The notes under the pieces were generated by a model. It did not search any database, had not been told where the DNA came from, and saw only the letters and a program-made list of their open reading frames with translations. 64,000 nucleotides of DNA from Monocercomonoides exilis PA203 (lineage: Eukaryota; Protista; Preaxostyla): assembly GCA_001643675.2 (NCBI GenBank), contig LSRY02000018.1, positions 806,001 through 870,000 on the forward strand. Direction: 5' to 3'. The translations under genes and the position numbers were made by a program. Of this stretch, positions 20,912 to 54,540 are shown piece after piece (within the stretch, counting starts at the first letter, position 1; the number at the start of each line of letters is the position of its first letter).

Positions 20912-21479
20912 CACATTTTTTTCTTTTTATAAATTGATATTTAAGAGCACATTTGCTGCACAAAATTTGAATGAAGAAACTTTAATCGAAAAGTACTTTT
21001 TGAGAATAAGCATTGATACAATTCGATTTTTTTTTTTGATTTTGAGAAAATTTTATATTTCTCTTTTTATTTTTGTATTGAAAATGTTTATTTTTATTAT
21101 CATTGCAGTTTTATTTTATTTTCATAATTCAATAAATAATCCAAGTGATTGGTATTCCTCCAAAAAACTTTGAGCAAATTGACTTGATATCGGACACGAT
21201 AAAATGACTATTACTAAAGTTATCTCGATCAATTATGAAGCTTTATTATCTTTTTTGTATATGAAATAGCACGAAAATAATGCAAAAATATTTCTTTATT
21301 TCTCAGTCAAAAAATGTGGTAAAAAATGAACTTATTTTTTTCGAACTGTAAGAAAAAGAAAATTGAAATAAATATTTGAACAATATTTGTCCATTCTGAT
21401 GTATTTTTTCACATTTGAAACGCTGAGGCTGTTGCTCTCACCGTTGAATTCAGAATACATAGATTTTGGATCCTAAAAA

Positions 21480-22420
21480 TTGTACTTATCTGGAATGGAG
21501 TCATCTTCGTTTTCTAATTTCTCTTCTTCGTAGATTTCTTCTTTTTATCCAATAAACAATCAAACCCATCACTTTTTCTAACGGGATTCCGAGTGTGTTT
21601 TGGCAATTAAAAAAACAAAATAAGCTCTTTGACATATTTCTCTAACTCCTTATTTGGTGAAAAACCTTTTCAATTGAGAATGCATTCCTTCAATGGTATT
21701 TGAACAAGCACCAGTGAGTGAATCCACATGAACCATATTGTGCTGCACTGTTTTTCGAATGACGCCAATTGTTTTTTAATAGAAATAAATCTTCCACTCG
21801 TCACTTATTATTGTTGTTCACGGAAGAATGTGAGATGTGATGAGATGAATGAAAGTATTCGCAGAACCATCTGGTCCAATAAAAATGCGGAGTTTTTTTT
21901 TTGTAAAAATTGTCAGTTTTTTCTGAGGAATCAAAGATCTGTATTTTCTTTTTTCCACTCAATATTTAATGTTTTCTCTATCTCCACACACATTTGTCAA
22001 TCTCCACTATAATTCCTTCCTCGCACAACACAAATGCATATATATTTATAAGATTCACACTGGAACATTTAAATGCACCACTCCAATAACCTTCAACCGC
22101 ATTATACTCTCCAATCAAAATTTGAACATGCTTGTTTGAAACACCGATCCATAACAGAAATGTTATTAAAATATTTTTTCCTATTCTGATCATCGATTAT
22201 GTTAATGTTATATCTTTGAGCACTGATCTTTTTGTTCCACACTTCCTGCAAGTTAAATAGTGATAATTTTCTGTATCATTTTCCAGTTTCTTCTTTTTTT
22301 TTGAATGCTGCACTGTGGATGTTTTTCTCTCAGAACTCTGTTCAAAAAGCCATTTTCAAGCTCGATCTGCGTTCATAAATGCGGTTTACTTGTCAAAGAT
22401 TGATATTTTTTCATCTAAGG
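21480..22420 (-). pseudogene. Decayed Merlin/IS1595 (ISXO2-like) DDE transposase
   Basis: Minus-strand fragments occur in the expected order: CRKCGTKRSVLKD (about 22215-22250), GEYNAVEGYWSG (about 22080-22115), DGSANTFIHLITSHILP*TTIISDEWKIY (about 21785-21870) and KTVQHNMVHVDSLTGACSNTIEGMHSQLKR (about 21665-21755). These match Merlin/ISXO2 motifs (ILPGTTIISDxWxAY; VDPxTGAHTNTIEG). Stops and frameshifts are present, and no termini were found. Confidence 0.8.
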
Positions 22421-22857
22421 AGCTGCGATTTCAAGAAAACGATTTTTGACAAAGCCAATTATTTAAATTATTGGGTGATTATTTTTGAAAGTTATTATTT
22501 CTTTTTAAAAGTTCGGTTCGATAATAATACTTGAACATTAAAAAAAGATCACTGAAAAATGAAAAGACTTACAAATGGCATCATCATCTTCATTTGAGCA
22601 AAAACATATGACTGCCAAACATCTGTGATGAATTCAGCGTTCGAATACAAAATATCTGTGAAAGGCAAACAATCTTTGAGAAATCAATGCACAGAAAAAA
22701 GTTATAATTTCAAAAATAATCATGCAATTGAACCATTTCGTGATATTTTCCCAGTCGAATAACACTTGATTCTGAGTTTTGAAATTTTCAAATAATATTA
22801 TAAAAAAAATAAATTACATCGACGTGATATTAAAATTTTGTCATGGAGAAGAAAAAA

Positions 22858-23112
22858 TGGACTTTCAAGCTTTTAGCGCACAATGCATGAAAAAACTATT
22901 TCACTTATAACATTTTTAAACTTAATCAAATTTCAAAAAAAACTGATTTTCATATCTGAAACAAACATCATTGATTCAATAACATGTTTTATGACCTCAC
23001 ACGTTTGCTTAAAAAAAAAATGAACCCATTTCATTCATATTTTTTGATCACAAAAGGTTAATCAAAAGTTCCTAATTTTTCAAACAAAATGCCTGAAGTC
23101 AATGATTTTGTC
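22858..23112 (+). repeat. Diverged copy of the outer 260 bp or so of the large TIR at 46503/51659
   Basis: Colinear blocks shared with 46509-46767: GGACTTTCAAGCTTTT, GCACAAnGCATGAAAA, TTTCACT, TGATTTTCATATC, CATCrTTGA, AACATG, AAAAATGrACCCATTT, TTTTTCAAA, CCTGAAGT. Confidence 0.8.
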
Positions 23113-23912
23113 CCATGTCAGAAATTCTTTCATTGTGCAGTATTTAATGTTTCAATTCAAATTTCATCCAAAGTTTTATCAATTATGTAATTTTTACCAA
23201 TTTGTTCGTATTCTCAAATAGTTTTTTAATTTTTTTCATCCTTGTTTTTTAATTTGTATTTACGAATTTTTGACACTTTCAAATATAAATAAAGCTAAAA
23301 CAATACTAAAAAAACAAATTGTTCATTATTCTATTAGATAATGCACATCAGGTTGTTCTTTTTTATAATAATATATTCCAAGTCCGAAAATCATTCATCC
23401 TCAGATTCGATTTTTAGCCATTTGAAAAAATAGAAAATGAAGAAATCATTCACATCCAAAGATCTTTTCATTTTCATGAATTCTTTTTGATTGATCAATA
23501 TTCCAAAGGAAACAATCATTTTGATGATGATGAGCCGAACAATTTCTTTCAGAAAAGAGCACTGACTTTCATGTAAACAAGCAATCATGCTCATTCACAA
23601 TTTGAATATTTCATAAAAACAAAAATGAACACTCAAAATGATATTATAGTGAATGTGAAAAATATCAACTCAAATGACTCCCTCTGTAAATTACATATTA
23701 TCATCCTAAAATACACATCAAACGAAAAAAAGTTGCCAATGGTGTTGTTTTTTAATTTGATGAATACAGATTAAAAGAAATAAATAAATAAGAACAATTT
23801 AACAAAGAAAATGACTTTCAAATCAAATGACTCTTAACAAATCTCTCTCACACAAAAATCGGAACGAAAATACAAATAAGTGTAATTGTGAATGAAAAAC
23901 ATTACGTTTTCG

Positions 23913-36521: not shown

Positions 36522-37367
36522 CCATTCAGCTTGAACTGTTCACAATTGGGTGTTCATGAAAGGGTTTTTGAAGTGATTGATTTTTCTGTCTGTTTGCTTT
36601 GTTTTTCAGTTGCCAAGCGATTTCCAACATTGTTTGAAGAAAGAATCTGGATTCAACAAAACAATTACCACGCTCAAGCAAGTCGGTTCATTTCTTTGAT
36701 TTGTTTTCTTCTTTCTTCGTTCGTCTTTTTCTTTTTCTTTTTCTTTTTCTCCAAAACTGTCACTTCAATTGACTCTTTCCTCTCAAAATTCAGTTCGTTC
36801 TCAATCGCATCTTCTGATCCTTTTTGCACAAGTTTTGTGGTGAGAAATATCCAAGTCAATTGTTTTATAGTGATGCAGATGGGATATTATGAATGAATGC
36901 ATTTTGATGTTAATATGTCATCAAAGAATCGATTTTCCATTTGATTTTCAAAGACCATTTTTGAAATGAGAAAAATCAATGCTCTTGGTGAAGTCAATGA
37001 AGTCAAAGCAACAGGCATTGCATCCATCACTTCCGCTGGGCGAGAACAAATTCTTTCTCTCAACTTCATTTTTTCTTTAATAAACATCCAAATGTCCGGG
37101 AACAAAAAATGAAATCATCATTCATTTTGAGAACTTTCACAAAACCCATTCAGTTGATTTTCTTTCCTTTTTCTTTTTCAATATCCTTTTTTGGATTTGA
37201 CATTTCAAATAAGTTATTGTGAAATACCTTCTATTCCAGTGACTTTATTGTTTTCTGTTCTTTCTAACTTTAATACAATCTTTGAACAGATGTTTCCTCA
37301 CCAATATTCTCAATTTTTGTTTTCCTTTATGAAAAAAAGAAAACGATTGTTCCTTTTTGCTTGATTA

Positions 37368-39377
37368 GTGTCATCTTTTTATTGGCACTTTTTTCTTTAT
37401 TGGCACCAAAATTTTTTGAAATGAAAAAAAATTGAAAACACATCAAAAAAAATCAAAACTCGAATCAATTACTCTTCTTTCTTTTCTTTTTCCATTTTCA
37501 CGTTCAAAGGGATCAAATTCTTCAGTTGTTTCATCGTCATCATTCTTTATTTCTCTAAGTGAACGAATCACAATTTTCTCCAAAGGCAATTCCACTTCTT
37601 CAATTTCCTTTTCTTTTTCTTCAATTTCTTCAATTTTCATCTTGTGTTTTTCATTATATTCATCCCATTCATCAAGAAGCTTTTCTTTTGTTATTTCTTT
37701 TCCGAAGAAGTCGAAACAATGAGAATGAGAAGGAATGAAGTATTGAGAAGACTGAGGAAGCTTCATCAACACAGATCCAGATCCATTGCTGAGGACTCCG
37801 CTGTTAATGAAGGCTTTTTTGATCACAGATGGTGTGAATGCTGTGTGAAGGGTTTGTGGTAACACATCTGCAACAGCTGTTCTTTTTGAAGATGAGGAGG
37901 TGGATGATGGAGAGCTGTAATTGTTTGATAGCTCTGACTTCAATACTGCAAGTACGCCTCTGTCCGGCGGCTGCGATATGTGCGTGGTGTGTGGAACGAA
38001 GGTGACGACATCAATTTCGGCTTCCTTGAACTGTCTCCATATCGTCGGATCTGCCCGCGATGAGTGTGAATCCAGGAGATGAAGGCAACGGTGAGTTTCT
38101 TTAAGAATTCGCTTTCTTCTGTCAATGATAGCTGGCAGCAGAACTGTTAAGGCGTATTTTTTGAATGACGTTTTATCCATCCAGCCGTTTGTGTTTGGCC
38201 AAATGTCAAGCGACAGCATCAACAGTGTTGTCAGTTCTTTCGGAAGAGTTGCTCTTGGCCACAGCACGACAGACGGAAGAGAGAAGCCATCAGCAGCTAT
38301 TCCAGCAACGAGAGTGGCATTCGGAATCCGTTCGGCAGTCTTTTTGAAACCAGCTTGTTCATCTGCGGGATGAACAACAACGCCACGTGTAGAAGTTGGA
38401 ATGCGAAGCGAAGATTCATCTATGTTGAAGATTAATTCCTCGAAATATTTGTTTACATCGTGTAGCACTTGCAATTCCGTATACCACGGCTTTAGGACTT
38501 TCTGACAAGATGCTGCAAGTCTGTTAATATCAACTTGCTTTGGCAGCGAGGACTTCAATTCAGGATGGCGCTTTATGAATGCGTGAACCGTCTTCAGAGT
38601 GACTGTCTTTTTCTTCTTTTCTTCATTTTCTCCTTCTTCTTCACTATCGTTAATTATATTTTCCATCTAAATACAAATTAATATTCAATTCAAATAACAA
38701 TTGCAAACCAGATCACGCGCTTTTCGTAACGAGAGGCTTGTCCCAGATCGAGATTCAATTATGACTTCTTCCAAGAATTGCTTTTCTTTTTCACCGCTGA
38801 TAATTGGTGGATGACCAACTTTTGCAATCGGCCTGCCGTTTTTTATGGCTTTAACTGCGTGCTCCAAAGATTTTTTGCGGATTCCACCATATTAAACACC
38901 GTCGACCAGCCTGACAACATTGTCATTAACAATGTGCGCAATCCTTTCTAATCTTGAACTGTATTTTCTGTAATGGAATGTAGACATTGCTTCCTTCAGC
39001 CGCTTCTGCGCCGCTTCAGCTTTCTTCTTCACTAGTAATTTCATATATATATAATGGGTAATGATCGTTAATAAATTTTTTTATTTATTAATTCTCATTA
39101 AAGAATTTAAAATTAATATTTAAATTTTTGAATGAATTAGAAATATTTACAAACCTTTGTGCAGTCCAATTTCTCACGAAAGCTCAATGGAAGGACTTGA
39201 ACCCACCCATTTCCCCCCATGAGAAATTGGATTTCTTTCAAAATACAAATCTAAAAATATTTGACATTTGCATTTAAACAAAAAAATATTTTTTAAAATA
39301 TCATTTGTGGGTCAGATTAATTTTTATTTAAAAAAAAAGTTCCAATAAAGAAAAAAGTGCCAATAAAAAGATGACCC
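37368..39377 (-). mobile_element. Complete pogo/Fot1-like (Tc1/mariner superfamily) DNA transposon, 2010 bp
   Basis: 36-bp TIRs G(T/G)GTCATCTTTTTATTGGCACTTTTTTCTTTATTGG at 37368-37403 and 39342-39377 (one mismatch), flanked by TA at 37366-37367 and 39378-39379. Confidence 0.93.
37443..39044 (-). pseudogene. DDE_1-family transposase (DD35D), 2 exons, with a premature TAA in exon 1
   Basis: Catalytic motifs FNIDESS, LLDSHSSR and SQPPDRGV, with 35 residues between the 2nd and 3rd Asp; also NGWMD and PHTTH. Exon 1 starts MKLLVKKK (39044) and has an in-frame TAA at about 38893-38895. The intron is at about 38667-38708. Confidence 0.85.
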
Positions 39378-39776
39378 TATTATCATCCTTTTCTCATATT
39401 TGTTGGAATGTTCGCAAACACCTTTTAATTTAGTAATAACATTTTATTCCATATCCATTGAGAAAGACAAACTCATCAACGTAATAAAAGTGTGTGTTCT
39501 TTTTTAAAGAATCTGTTGAGCATTCTTGTTATTATTTGAATTTCAAACTAATGATTCAATAGAAGTTCAAATGGAACAATCTTTTCATTCAACAACAATG
39601 AACCGTTTTTCGTGTGATTTTTTTAACTATCAAAATAATGATATTGGTTGAAAAATACACAATTGAAAAATAAATCAGAAATTTTTCTTCTCACGAAAAG
39701 AAAATATGGTTCGAAACAAAATACCCATAACAAAAATTGTTTGTTCTCGATTCTTAATTATTCATTTTTTTTCGAA

Positions 39777-46232: not shown

Positions 46233-46502
46233 AAGTTATTTTTCCTTCACATGGATTTTGCAGATAATTGTCAATAGACAATAAGCTTTTAATGAATACA
46301 TGACAAAGAAATCTGTAAACGGAGTAATTTATTTTCTGTATTCATTCATTAATATTCAAAGTTAATTTTTTGACAAGATTTTTCTGAGATAAAGATGATT
46401 TTTATAAAAACAATCACCTCTTTGGAAAATGCTTATATTACCATTTATTTCATTCAAGAAATGAAAATGCTTTAAAGTGAGAAATGCTTTAGAAATTAGT
46501 GA

Positions 46503-47487
46503 AAATACGGACTTTCAAGCTTTTTTTTTTTTGCACAAAGCATGAAAAGATTGTTTCACTCACTTCTTAATATAACTTTATCAGATTTTAAAATAGATTT
46601 GATTTTCATATCCGTTTACAGGCATCGTTGAAATCAAAACATGAAGTTCTCAAATATTTCAGGAATGTCAAAAAATGGACCCATTTTTGTTGTGTTTTTT
46701 TACTCAAAAAGTCAGTGTAAAATGCATATTTTTTCAAATGAAAATCCCTGAAGTGAAATATTTTTCCATATTATGTTAAATAATATTGCAACAGATGAAA
46801 ATTTTACATTTTGCACAAAAATCCTTATTAATAGCATTATATCATTTGCGATTCACCGTATCTTAACCTTAGACACACAACTTGATTCGACACGTCAGAG
46901 ATATGGTATATCAGCTATAGATCCATCTCGATAAAGATCAATCAATATTATTTATTTATGTGTATCTGATGGCTGTTATCATCTTGTTTAATAAGTTGGA
47001 ATAAACAATGATAATAAGATAGAGATCGAGAGTTATTGCTTATATTCTTAGGGGTTTATCATGATTAGATTTTCAGTGATGTTCTATAAAGAAGGAGTTA
47101 TTGATAGGAGTTAATCGATATGTATCTATAGCTGATATATCATATGTCCAAGTAGGAGATTAGCTAAAAGATTAGCTGAAAGTGTCGAAGATGGAAATAT
47201 TAGTGTGAAAATTGTGTGTTATCGTTGATGTGATCGCAAATAAAAATAATAGATTAAGTTTTTGCTTCATAGCAAATGGATCGGAAGAAGATATACACAA
47301 CTGTGGAAGAAGCGAAGGCTGCTCAACAGAAACAGATTATACAGTTTCAGGAAAAACGTAGGGAAGAAACTAAGTATTACAACGAACATGTATCTGAGAA
47401 ACAGAAGAAATTGATTAAGTTATTGAGGAGAAAGGTTATCGAAGATGATGAGCAGTTAGATGAGTTGATGGAAAAAGTTAATGGTTA
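46503..47487 (+). repeat. Left TIR (985 bp)
   Basis: Direct comparison with the reverse complement of 50675-51659. Confidence 0.97.
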
Positions 47488-47506
47488 TTTGCATACACCA
47501 GGTTGA
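47276..47506 (+). CDS. Small charged helical protein (76 aa) encoded in the left TIR
   Basis: Intact ATG-to-stop ORF MDRKKIYTTVEEAKAAQQKQ..., identical over 70 aa to the copy in the right TIR. Confidence 0.6.
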   Translation: MDRKKIYTTVEEAKAAQQKQIIQFQEKRREETKYYNEHVSEKQKKLIKLLRRKVIEDDEQLDELMEKVNGYLHTPG

Positions 47507-47967
47507 TTGGGCAAATTGTGTAAATTGATGAAATATAACAGACTACACACATTTGTTGTACCGTAGATTGTATCAAACAATGGTCACGGTGGCATTATGG
47601 TGGATTGTCGCATTGATGTTTTTCACTTGACTTGAGTGTTATTTTGGTGTATTAAGCTTTCAAAAGTCTAAACTGGTAAACAGGACACCGAATTGTGGCA
47701 ATATCAAAGACTCAGCTGAAGGGAAATAATTGGTTGAATCTCCGTGCTGGGGGCGTGTCCTGGTGTTCAGGTGTCCAGGATAGTTTTGTTTCATCTGAAG
47801 TGAGCTGTAAACATGCCATTTCTGCCAACATGAGCATTTTCCCCCTAATTTTTTATGATTTTGAAGGTTTTTATTTCATTTCGACTGTATCATCATTTTG
47901 CCACATTGCCACATGGTATGATTGGTGATATATAACAGTTGGCATACACTTTTGTATCGTTTGTGTC

Positions 47968-50342
47968 TTATTGATTTCCTAAAAAACGAATATGTTCAGT
48001 CAATTTCCACAGAACAGTCGATGTTATCTTCATCTTCTCGTTGTTTGAGGAGTTGTTCATACTCTGACTTGAGTTTGTAACACCACACTTGATTTTCTCT
48101 TCCATCACTTTTCTTGTGCTCATATCTGTCTTTAATTGCCAATTGGAATGAGCGATCGTTCTTGTATTCAACTGGTCTTAAAAACAAAGTGCATCAGAAC
48201 ATCTCCACCCTTATTTGAGTTTATTGAAATGCTCCTGACAGAACACATCATTGACAGAGAGTGATGCTTCAATGATATATTCCTTTGCCTCCGTTGTTGG
48301 AATAGCTCTTGTGTTGAAATTGGTGAGATCTTTGCTGATGAAATAACAGAGAAGTTATTTATAGAATTCGTTGTAGAAAGAGTTTGTGAAATCCTTGAAG
48401 AATGTGAGATTGTTCTTGTATTTTGAGTTTCAATCACAAACAACATATCTTCTGTCACCAATCTCAATCTTTTCCGGGTATGTGTGATTTGTCACAAATA
48501 TGAAGTTAACAACGTTCTCAGCTGTTCTTCTTGGCTGATTCTTCTCATTGATTCTGATTGTTGAATCCGCGATTATTCTCTTCAATGCGTCAAAGTTAGC
48601 TGTTCGATCATCTCCAACATTCTTCAATTCGTTATGAACAATGAAAATTTTCTTTTCGACGATAGAGTTGAACTGTCCTGTCAGTTCTGCAATCTCTGTA
48701 ACATTCGGACATGAATATCCTGACAACAGTTCAGTTAGTTTATTTGTCCAGACATTCTTTCCAATACCTTGCAAACATTTGAGAACAAGTGATGTTTCTG
48801 CTTTTTTTCCCAGGATTTTGAACAATTGAAGAAATCAAACAGAGGATGTATTGATAGAGTTCTTCGTTGTCATTGGCAACAACTTTTCGTGTGAAATCAA
48901 AGAATGGTTTGACAATTTCGTTGTTTTGTCCGTTTGCCATTTGGTGTTTGAACTCATGGAACAGAGAGAATATTCGATAGTTATCTGAGAAGAACTTCAC
49001 ACCATCGATCGACAGAACATGTGAGTATTGTTCGAAAGCTGTCTCAACTGTGAGAGTCTTTTTATCATCATCCCAGAGTTTTATTGTTTTGAACAGTTCG
49101 AACATTGCTGATTTTGTCTTGAATGTTATCGAATAACAAGAGGAGTGAATGTCAAACTATTTCACAATGAATTCCATCCTTGCTTCAACAAACCTCAGAA
49201 CTTTTGTGAGATCTTCAGCGACTTCAGACAGAAAGGAGTATTGATTTCGACAAGCTTTATCCCTGATTTCAGAGAACGAGAATGATGAGTTGAGATTAAT
49301 TTCATGAACGGTAATCTCTCGTGGAGGTTCTCCCTTTCGCTCGTTTTCTTTTCTGAGGAGTGGAACGATCACTTCGTTGTTATATGTTGGATTCTATCTT
49401 ATGACAATTTTTTGTAGAACAAATGGATGTGACTTGTTATCTCTTTATCTGTTTCGTTTCCCTTCAAAGTGAGTGATTGCATTTGATGTTAGGGCAGCTA
49501 TCTCTCTGATTTGATTGAAAAGATAATCTATTGATTGGTTGTCGAAACCGTTAATGTTGACGAGAGAGTTGAGAGCTGCAAACAACGGTAAAAGAGTTAA
49601 CTCAAAATCAAGTGAAAGATAGCCTGTGTCGTTATGTATTTCAACATCTTTAAGTCCATTAACAAAAGCAAGAGCGACAGTTGGAGACATATCAACGATT
49701 CCATCTTGTGTGAGAAGATTATATGGTTCAGCTGCCATTGCTACTAATGAATTCTCTGTTTTGAGATCAATACCGAAGATGTTAAAAACACTCTCGAGTG
49801 ATGAAAGATCTCTGAGCTCTCTGTAATTGTTGAGGGAAATGTATTTGGTGATGATTCTTTTGCCATCTTTCATCTCTCTGAATGAAGAGTCAGCTTGAAT
49901 AATAAGCCTCTGTTTTCCATCTCCAATACCTGCAAAAATGTCGATATCGTACTCTCGACTCGTGAACACTTTTGTTTGTAAACAAATATTTGAAGCGATA
50001 ACCACACAGCTTGCAATAAATGAAAAGACCACAATGAGCTGTTTGCACAAGCCCGACATTTCGGGGGAATTTCTCGAGAATGGAATTCCTGATGGTTTTC
50101 GTTTGTTCAGCTTGAAGGGATTTGTTAATATCAACATCAATAACACAAAGATCCTCACATTTGCTGTTATCGATAGCTGTTCCAGTGTGTCGTTTGCCCT
50201 GCTTCTTGTCGGAATATTTCTTGAAGTCGAACAAATCAAAAATGTGATCTTTCATTCGTTCTCCCCGCGTTTGCTGCTCAGTTGAAATTGAATCGATTAA
50301 TTTTTGGATTATGTTTTCAGAGTCTGTTTGGGGCTCTGTTAT
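47968..50342 (-). pseudogene. Frameshifted primase-polymerase fused to an SF3/D5-type (DUF5906/NrS-1-like) helicase
   Basis: Successive minus-strand fragments. Prim-pol-like: LCVIDVDI and VQTAHCGLFIYC (compare DxD and TxxGGxHxY), then DIDIF. Pre-helicase: FSLFHEFK...VANDNEELYQYILCLISSIVQNPGKK. Helicase: Walker A LKCLQGIGKN, LTGQFNS, Walker B IFIVHNE, LKRII..STIRINEKN, motif C NFIFVTN and arginine finger DRRYVV. Confidence 0.8.
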
Positions 50343-50673
50343 TTTTTAAAAATTATAAAAACAAGTTTTTTTTTAAACGAAGATATTTTCTCAACGTCAA
50401 TTTATGTGGAAGATGACATTGAGGTTAATGTCGAAAATAGACGATAACAGTTAATTTTCACATTAATTGTATTTTGCCCATTTTGCTCAGTTTGACCGTT
50501 TGCCCACATTATCTCTAGAATGTTATTGACTCGGTGCACCCAGTGCAGGTGTAAAAGCACTGAGATTTGAGCTGATATTTCCACGCCACAGCATCCTAAT
50601 TATCTGCCCAATCCACCCAGTGCAAGCAATGACAGTTAACGCATTCAACCAAAAATATAAACAAACTTCCAAC

Positions 50674-50886
50674 TTAACCATTAACTTTTTCCATCAACTC
50701 ATCTAACTGCTCATCATCTTCGATAACCTTTCTCCTCAATAACTTAATCAATTTCTTCTGTTTCTCAGATACATGTTCGTTGTAATACTTAGTTTCTTCC
50801 CTACGTTTTTCCTGAAACTGTATAATCTGTTTCTGTTGAGCAGCCTTCGCTTCTTCCACAGTTGTGTATATCTTCTTCCGATCCAT
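50674..50886 (-). CDS. Small charged helical protein (70 aa) encoded in the right TIR
   Basis: Same ORF as in the left TIR; its TAA stop falls exactly at the inner TIR boundary. Confidence 0.6.
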   Translation of the reverse strand: MDRKKIYTTVEEAKAAQQKQIIQFQEKRREETKYYNEHVSEKQKKLIKLLRRKVIEDDEQLDELMEKVNG

Positions 50887-51659
50887 TTGCTATGAAGCAA
50901 AAACTTAATCTATTATTTTTATTTGCGATCACATCAACGATAACACACAATTTTCACACTAATATTTCCATCTTCGACACTTTCAGCTAATCTTTTAGCT
51001 AATCTCCTACTTGGACATATGATATATCAGCTATAGATACATATCGATTAACTCCTATCAATAACTCCTTCTTTATAGAACATCACTGAAAATCTAATCA
51101 TGATAAACCCCTAAGAATATAAGCAATAACTCTCGATCTCTATCTTATTATCATTGTTTATTCCAACTTATTAAACAAGATGATAACAGCCATCAGATAC
51201 ACATAAATAAATAATATTGATTGATCTTTATCGAGATGGATCTATAGCTGATATACCATATCTCTGACGTGTCGAATCAAGTTGTGTGTCTAAGGTTAAG
51301 ATACGGTGAATCGCAAATGATATAATGCTATTAATAAGGATTTTTGTGCAAAATGTAAAATTTTCATCTGTTGCAATATTATTTAACATAATATGGAAAA
51401 ATATTTCACTTCAGGGATTTTCATTTGAAAAAATATGCATTTTACACTGACTTTTTGAGTAAAAAAACACAACAAAAATGGGTCCATTTTTTGACATTCC
51501 TGAAATATTTGAGAACTTCATGTTTTGATTTCAACGATGCCTGTAAACGGATATGAAAATCAAATCTATTTTAAAATCTGATAAAGTTATATTAAGAAGT
51601 GAGTGAAACAATCTTTTCATGCTTTGTGCAAAAAAAAAAAAGCTCGAAAGTCCGTATTT
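50675..51659 (-). repeat. Right TIR (985 bp)
   Basis: Direct comparison with 46503-47487. Confidence 0.97.
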
Positions 51660-52663
51660 CTCCCCGTTTGGTCTAATTATAACAAGATTAACATCAATTT
51701 TTTCCCTTTCATTAATCAATGCTCCTTCAAAAATTCTCAGTTAATCCTCATTTCATTCTCCTCAGTATTTCTTTTTTTGCGCAAAAACCTAATTGTTTTT
51801 TCATATTTTCAGGGTGCTCTTTTTTTCTTCATTCTTTCATTCTAAATTTATGAGCAAATAACAAAACAATCTTTGTCCTTTATCCAATAGATATATTGGA
51901 AAGACCTGTTAGCAAATAAATTGGAATGAAACAAACCCAAAAAAAAGTTATGCAAAAGAATCTGAAATGCGGCGCTCATTAATAATTATTATTTGAAAAA
52001 ATTCGAATTCATGATGCTCAAATATTTTCCAAGTTCGTTTGATACTAAAGATTATTTTTTTCTTTCTATTTCTCAAATGTTTCTCTTTTTATTTCTTCAT
52101 ATCGAAACACTCAATTCATTGAACTCTCAACAATTTATGAGATATATATTTTCTGTCATTTCCTAATTATGAAAGATGGAATTCAAGCGAAATATTGCTT
52201 GCTTGTTTTCTTCTTCTTCATATCAAGCCATCAAACACTTTTGATCTCGAACCAGTAATCAGAAAAAAATGTTTATACATAATTTTGATATTTCAAAATT
52301 GAGAATTCCGATATACTTTCATTCTTCGTTTTATAAAACATAAAAAGAAACAAAAGAAACAGGAAAAAGAAAGAAAGAAAAACAATTTCACTCAAGAATA
52401 GTAAAAAGGAAAAGTGACTTGTCGCTCTGATAAATTGATAAACAAATCAATTAAATGTTTGTGAAATTAACACAATAGCAATATTAAATCATATTCGTAC
52501 AAACACAACATCAAAAAATTCTCAAACAAAACAATATTGAACTAATGAATAAATTATACATTCAAAAAGCTAATTTCAATTATTATTAAAAAACAATCAA
52601 AAATTTTGTAAATGAATTTACGAGCTTCATATTTCTCGATTTTTTCCACATATATAATTAAAT

Positions 52664-54540
<1,877 letters not shown>

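Follow-up and report, generated by a model that had tools for sequence, protein, structure and literature searches.

A 64,000-nucleotide stretch of the Monocercomonoides exilis PA203 genome (assembly GCA_001643675.2, contig LSRY02000018.1, positions 806,001 to 870,000 of the forward strand), called the window below, contains an element in which two long inverted arms enclose a decayed primase-helicase gene. With a confidence just short of even, we read it as a dead chromosomal copy of a many-copy oxymonad element, a capsid-less and integrase-less offshoot of the Polinton-like viruses (PLVs) of metamonads that would replicate itself and borrow its integration. The established part of this reading comprises the anatomy, the protein fold, the dispersed family, the neutral decay and the excess likeness of the arms. 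It is probably a compact oxymonad variant of the Polinton/PLV type that has so far gone undescribed; no description of the family was found in the open-access literature, most subscription papers and Repbase being outside the scope of the search.

The left arm (46503..47487, + strand) and the right arm (50675..51659, - strand) of the near-perfect inverted repeat are 985 nt long, differ by one A/G mismatch at arm position 15 (99.9% identity) and lie 3187 nt apart. A first-pass annotation, made from the letters alone, had described this 985-bp repeat around a 3.2-kb core and had named a fold-back chimera or misassembly as what would overturn it. The repeat is real. Contigs from four public sequencing runs, which stem from one sample and one study and are not mutually independent, span all four junctions without a difference: the left outer (46239-46531), the right outer (51615-53700) and the two inner ones (47465-47839 and 50111-50702). 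In one run, the exact arm contig 46528-46648 has a depth of 167, about double that of the exact contigs over the inner and right outer junctions (~96-102), as two arms collapsed into one contig would give; left-flank contigs of the same run have depths of 40-57. A fold-back or assembly artefact is ruled out by the exact single-copy contigs over the four junctions together with the roughly doubled arm depth. As exact contigs cross the locus at single-copy depth, the window copy has no close sibling and is unique.

Aligned to the intact relative P0015 (804 aa, KAH7829568.1), the core gene (47998..50345, - strand) is a pseudogene that once encoded a primase-polymerase of the archaeo-eukaryotic primase (AEP) type, a helical domain, a superfamily 3 (SF3) helicase of the D5/NrS-1 type and a C-terminal domain. 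It falls into four frame segments with 76, 85, 88 and 66% identity to P0015. Its reading frame is shifted three times and interrupted by six premature stops; other copies naturally end where a seventh, terminal stop lies. The fusion had been correctly identified from the sequence. PF19263 scores above its cut-off in the helicase piece of the window copy (E 4e-18), and P0015 has both PF19263 and VapE-like matches within its helicase. The structure prediction proposed by the first-pass annotation was run on this intact relative and recovered both folds: the model of the whole protein (pLDDT 83.7) finds the NrS-1 helicase region as top fold match (E 1e-18), and that of the N-terminal 320 residues (pLDDT 87.1) matches the primase-polymerases of pRN1 (Z 10.1, root mean square deviation 3.5, 153 aligned) and NrS-1 (Z 8.4). 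The intact relative thus shows the N-terminal fold with the DxD and His motifs of an AEP primase-polymerase, and the C-terminal helicase has the Walker A, Walker B, motif C and Arg finger of SF3. In the window copy, neither the primase histidine nor the first glycine of Walker A is preserved. The residues D69, D71, H107, Walker A GK, NE, N618 and R631 are the same in all 26 full-length relatives compared, which are 25-45% identical; as judged from these residues, the enzyme is kept under selection between families. Within the family copy at hand, the 27 private differences between the window and the majority comprise 8 synonymous and 19 non-synonymous ones, close to the neutral ratio of 27:69 (40 of 1026 rows). 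By this count the core gene is decaying neutrally. A code in which TAA/TAG stand for Gln, as in Streblomastix, was rejected as a cause of the stops. Opposite them P0015 has six different residues (Y, W, E, C, Q and K), so that they reflect decay, and host open reading frames (ORFs) are readable in the standard code. The first-pass annotation had seen no protein-primed DNA polymerase (pPolB), integrase or capsid gene, and within the window copy this is confirmed, as the D5 gene and a short spacer on either side take up the whole core. In the spacers (50530-50630 and 47745-47785), short GC-richer repeats (CCCAGTGCA x2, by eye) were noticed as possible origin iterons.

Given how far the core has decayed, the two arms differ much too little, and on this comparison they are younger than the core. 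The six stops imply about 7% divergence of the core, which predicts about 140 mismatches between the arms (lower bound about 50), and one is seen; the arms were therefore homogenised later. Alleles common to both arms are absent from the majority of other contigs. The simplest account is that one arm was copied onto the other after insertion, and the arms were likely made identical after the copy had died. Because of this later homogenisation, perfect arms cannot be taken as a sign of recent activity or of a free linear form. The idea that they mark a live linear replicon is thus not borne out, the core of this unique copy being about 7% decayed. Both the single arm mismatch and the unlike termini lie within the outermost ~20 bp, which suggests that the homogenisation tract ended within a second copy of the transposon-like sequence described next.

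The edges of the perfect repeat are not the ends of the element. The element has transposon-type termini ~6 bp beyond them (46497 and 51665) and, about 400 bp inward of them, a second family boundary (46897/51265). The 985-bp repeat had been taken for the element's own terminal inverted repeat (TIR); its outer 270 bp are instead an independent, high-copy miniature inverted-repeat transposable element (MITE). In the outer left arm this MITE is complete (46497..46769, + strand, ~270 bp), with a G-rich 5' end, a 3' end in ...TTTTTCC and AT flanks on both sides. Its mirror copy (51393..51665, - strand) ends in GGGGAG beyond the perfect repeat, the left one in TAGTGA; outside the repeat the two termini are thus unlike each other, and the right one is closer to the family end. 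In a contig depth profile of this region, with contigs taken at 80% likeness, the summed depth rises at 46498 from 40 to 44,000-79,000, and the MITE is at least ten times as abundant as the core. Loose ends with unrelated flanks ending GGGG just before 46501 were found in 15, 4 and 7 contigs in three runs. A solo, 69%-diverged complete copy lies elsewhere in the window (22845-23114, + strand) with AT on both sides, so that two of the three window copies are flanked by AT on both sides. By eye, within the first ~400 letters per record, the MITE was also recognised at five further M. exilis loci in the supplement of PMC8101967. No cognate transposase was identified for it, and none is encoded inside it.

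Inward of the MITE lies a nested inverted repeat (46898..47148, mirrored at 51014-51264) with 50-bp arms that are 82% alike and a spacer of ~150 bp. Its predicted hairpin fold has a z of -4.07, reached by 0 of 200 shuffles. Loose ends with unrelated flanks occur in 8 contigs at 46897 and 7 at 51265 (agreement about 0.5), with a common TACA just outside the AG in their consensus, and other copies run on past the inner end of the hairpin (variant at 47158). As many other contigs begin at 46897, the MITE is not a constant part of the family. Since the hairpin start coincides with unrelated flanks in other contigs, the family would start there; the nested hairpin is probably the terminal module of the replicase family, whose unit would then measure ~4.4 kb. 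A flip-flop inversion of the hairpin spacer was considered for the joints 46932-51056 and 47108-51230, which have 21-34-letter sides, and was rejected, the 82% repeat explaining them.

The primase-helicase had been listed as the only gene. This does not hold, as a conserved ORF of 76 codons, encoding a small, basic and helical protein, sits at the inner end of each arm (47276..47506, + strand, on the left; 50674..50886, - strand, on the right, where it is ended by a stop at the arm boundary). Its sole homologue is MONOS_17995 (81% identical), and no match above chance was found in Pfam, PHROGs or the Atlas. A DNA-binding or accessory role is likely. The upstream motif of the replicase gene (50424..50493, - strand) is an old inverted match to the region upstream of the small ORF (47178-47243), scoring 46 against a maximum of 43 in 100 shuffles, and is likely a shared promoter or a relic of older arms. 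A possible relic of the small-ORF 3' end at the right junction (50602-50629) scores 32, under the 95% shuffle level of 37, and is a hint only. A bacterial promoter scan was uninformative (15 sites, 23 expected).

The element belongs to a multi-copy family with a compact layout of primase-helicase and small ORF. In NCBI it is represented by at least 16 protein records, spread over 13 different M. exilis contigs; one record is full length, and all 12 matches in a protein search with the core gene are M. exilis proteins (63-85%). Pairwise identities within the family are star-like (median 84%, range 67-96%, 143 pairs), which would fit a burst followed by decay. Summed depth, which is not a copy number, is ~13-37 times higher over the core than over the flanks (run X2) and another 3-5 times higher over the small-ORF region than over the core. 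At a second locus the layout recurs: MONOS_17995 and a family D5 gene lie on the same contig under consecutive accessions (KAH7819006 and KAH7819005). A contig diverged by ~10% joins the small ORF to the left core (47469-47762/47806). In addition, opposite-strand joints (47527-50453, 47802-50455 and 47855-50671) connect sequence behind the gene with sequence before it, which suggests that other copies have inverted arms as well, with inner boundaries elsewhere; the sides of these joints measure 23-82 letters, and those under 30 were flagged as unreliable. Two identical decayed D5 fragments two gene numbers apart on one contig (P0029; KAH7829183 and KAH7829185) were also noticed, possibly a second homogenised or duplicated locus.

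Beyond this family, a quick tree of 49 chosen proteins groups a second M. exilis D5 family and Streblomastix strix proteins with the element family in an oxymonad clade (SH-aLRT 100). The second family (P0030, MONOS_9167) is 46% identical and has at least three genes in its own orthogroup, and a supplement row of PMC10703272 lists at least 25 D5-family genes in one S. strix orthogroup. Of the Atlas clusters, the closest holds mainly parabasalid proteins and the second closest mainly those of Preplasmiviricota. A profile-free protein search returned 358 proteins at E<=1e-30. For the 20 full-length relatives from outside M. exilis that were looked up (partial and distant rows left out), 16 contigs measure 2.4-4.5 kb and four 9.6-20.9 kb. 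The 16 short contigs are a weak hint of compact units, metagenome contigs often being short. Three records of one relative in the P0024 cluster lie on contigs of 10.7, 10.7 and 11.6 kb, perhaps a complete element of ~11 kb. Other searches returned no relative: IMG/VR gave nothing with the helicase piece and 33 loci with the alignment, all generic helicases at 22-33%; none was found in JGI metagenomes and GTDB; degenerate-motif searches gave 0, 1 and 0 loci, the one being a chance match; plasmid and phage tblastn gave helicase-only matches below 30%; and the supplements of PMC8767320 held no match.

From these data a course of events can be proposed. The family unit of ~4.4 kb would start at the nested hairpin (~46897/51265). 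Its hexameric helicase may open the hairpin-bearing ends, where the primase-polymerase would prime and extend as pRN1 ORF904 or the NrS-1 enzyme does. Integration may be supplied in trans, either by a Polinton-type integrase from the few elements with capsid genes or by the DDE transposase responsible for moving the GG-ended MITE. After a burst of spread, the family would have died. At this locus, gene conversion between the arms, or template switching, may later have transferred ~970 bp from one side to the other along with the flanking MITE; this would have made the repeat perfect and removed whatever target duplication the family ends had. Going further, such elements might form an undescribed class in oxymonads and other gut protists: minimal self-synthesising elements of ~4-5 kb with hairpin-ended inverted repeats, an AEP-SF3 replicase and a small ORF, but without capsid, polymerase B or recombinase, which would replicate linearly, borrow integration enzymes and be the nuclear SF3 counterpart of transpovirons, with the 16 short-contig relatives as members. 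We regard this wider reading as possible, though doubtful.

Several points weigh against the reading as a PLV offshoot. The lack of integrase, pPolB and capsid genes holds for the window copy alone, no other copy having been read end to end, and the four longer contigs among the 20 relatives are of Polinton/PLV size. The accessions of the second small-ORF/D5 pair do not give its relative orientation, and joint sides are as short as 23 letters. The nested hairpin may be a second MITE, in which case the replicase family itself would lack a long TIR. Only a single M. exilis copy is unbroken, as passive carriage would also lead one to expect, and no activity, free form or expression was seen in the assembled contigs. 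One alternative is that the element is an ordinary non-autonomous deletion derivative of a full-size M. exilis Polinton or PLV with the same ends and D5 gene, supplied with integrase, polymerase and capsid in trans; this we hold to be possible but rather unlikely. Polinton ends read AG...CT, and the AGAG with which the inner family boundary starts resembles them; the contigs of 9.6-20.9 kb would suit such parents as well. Capsid genes do occur in oxymonads, with six major capsid protein (MCP) genes in M. exilis and 820 in S. strix according to the supplement of PMC10120064. As described in PMC7845603, Mavericks of Trichomonas vaginalis such as Tv1.6 hold a primase gene beside integrase, pPolB and capsid genes, without kinship to the M. 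exilis D5 family being implied, and the AEP-SF3 fusion is given as a common PLV replication module in bioRxiv 10.64898/2026.06.19.733378. However, the 16 D5 gene-model records outnumber the six MCP genes, joints in other copies set the 3' side of the gene directly beside arm sequence, and with the common TACA just outside it the AG may not be the terminus. Moreover, non-autonomous derivatives usually keep their ends and not a whole replicase.

Passive carriage would mean that a viral fragment of D5 gene and small ORF came to lie between two GG-ended MITEs and was amplified as a Pack-type composite transposon by a host DDE transposase, its replicase idle. The outer ends are indeed MITE termini, and as these are unlike in the last ~6 bp and at the one arm mismatch, each side may have had its own MITE; the much higher abundance of the MITE and the neutral decay of the copies agree with this. 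The left MITE, however, has AT flanks on both sides like a stand-alone insertion, the inner module begins at 46897/51265 with unrelated flanks in 8 and 7 contigs, and D5 genes have expanded separately in M. exilis (twice) and, according to PMC10703272, in S. strix with catalytic residues kept, which makes such a composite improbable. Less probable still is a D5-bearing viral relic without family TIRs that a local inverted duplication turned into a palindrome at this one locus. It would explain the patchwork arms, much younger than the core, and the right small ORF cut at the boundary, and the twin fragments KAH7829183/185 prove that local duplications happen; the opposite-strand joints in other copies, the older inverted match within the arms and the excess depth of the small-ORF region over the core all speak against it. 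As for a live linear plasmid-like replicon that integrated recently, or a fold-back assembly artefact, the near-identity of the arms is the one feature in favour, and the six stops, three frameshifts and changed catalytic motifs, together with single-copy depth over all four junctions and about double in the arm, make either very improbable.

The element lies in an intergenic stretch, 1 kb left of an intron-split host thiolase gene (52664-53985, - strand). Elsewhere in the window, a pogo/Tc5-like DNA transposon (37366-39379) has a DDE_1 ORF (37446-38666, - strand, E 3e-10) and 62-bp inverted repeats that are 85% alike, and heavily broken frames at ~21400-22700 (- strand) show, by eye, a motif like that of Merlin/IS1595 transposases, a 41-aa piece of which has no Pfam match. 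If the inverted repeats of the family unit indeed enclose no more than a replicase gene and a small ORF, Polinton/PLV reduction in a eukaryotic nucleus would have no smaller known end product. Such units would then account for part of the unclassified repeats, put at 35% of the M. exilis genome in PMC8767320, and for many ‘Poxvirus D5’ gene models. In table S11 of PMC6759080, 196 M. exilis genes are listed as being of transposon or virus origin. The case is also a caution that near-perfect long TIRs can come from later homogenisation and do not date an insertion. As the window copy is dead, its direct experimental use is limited.

Among known systems, the outer 270 bp resemble GG-ended MITEs of DDE transposons (PHIS group or Merlin) in their G-rich ends and AT flanks. 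Merlin elements have GG termini, an 8-9-bp duplication and an IS1595-type transposase (PMC8101967); no 8-9-bp duplication was found here or at 22845-23114, and no transposase. For the PHIS group (Harbinger/ISL2EU), PMC10045372 gives a short target duplication of 0-4 bp. The primase-helicases of pRN1 (ORF904), phage NrS-1 and SaPI (PriRep) share domain order and fold with the element protein and illustrate that a one-protein replicase suffices for small replicons, whereas their carriers are prokaryotic circular plasmids, phages or satellites and their identity to it is 12-20%. Polintons/Mavericks (T. vaginalis Mav Tv1.6) and AEP-SF3 PLVs share with the element the long inverted arms, the dispersed chromosomal copies and the primase-SF3 fusion, but measure 15-30 kb against its ~4.4-5.2 kb, and the window copy is without their capsid, ATPase, pPolB, RVE integrase and tyrosine recombinase. 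The pPolB and RVE integrase by which PMC5499653 defines Polintons are absent from the 3187-bp core, which has neither room nor ORF for the MCP and packaging ATPase of a PLV; long terminal inverted repeats are present, yet composite and homogenised. The 6-bp target duplication described in PMC10045372 is lacking at the outer ends, which are MITE ends, and the flanks of the inner boundary were overwritten by the duplication. The earlier remark that neither a target duplication nor AG...CT ends were visible concerned the edge of a homogenised tract and not the family ends. In T. vaginalis, according to PMC11296320, primase-helicase homologues are abundant and PLV-like carriers are suspected. Transpovirons are likewise small, capsid-less, bounded by inverted repeats and centred on a replicase, and PMC5499653 mentions a proposed origin from PLVs by gene loss. 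The element is not a transpoviron as first considered, however: the transpoviron protein joins an SF1 helicase to an inactivated pPolB, and transpovirons travel with mimiviruses as free linear DNA packaged in the virus particles, whereas the element has AEP plus SF3 and resides in a host chromosome. By analogy, the element would work like a reduced PLV replication module and parallel the transpovirons in its logic.

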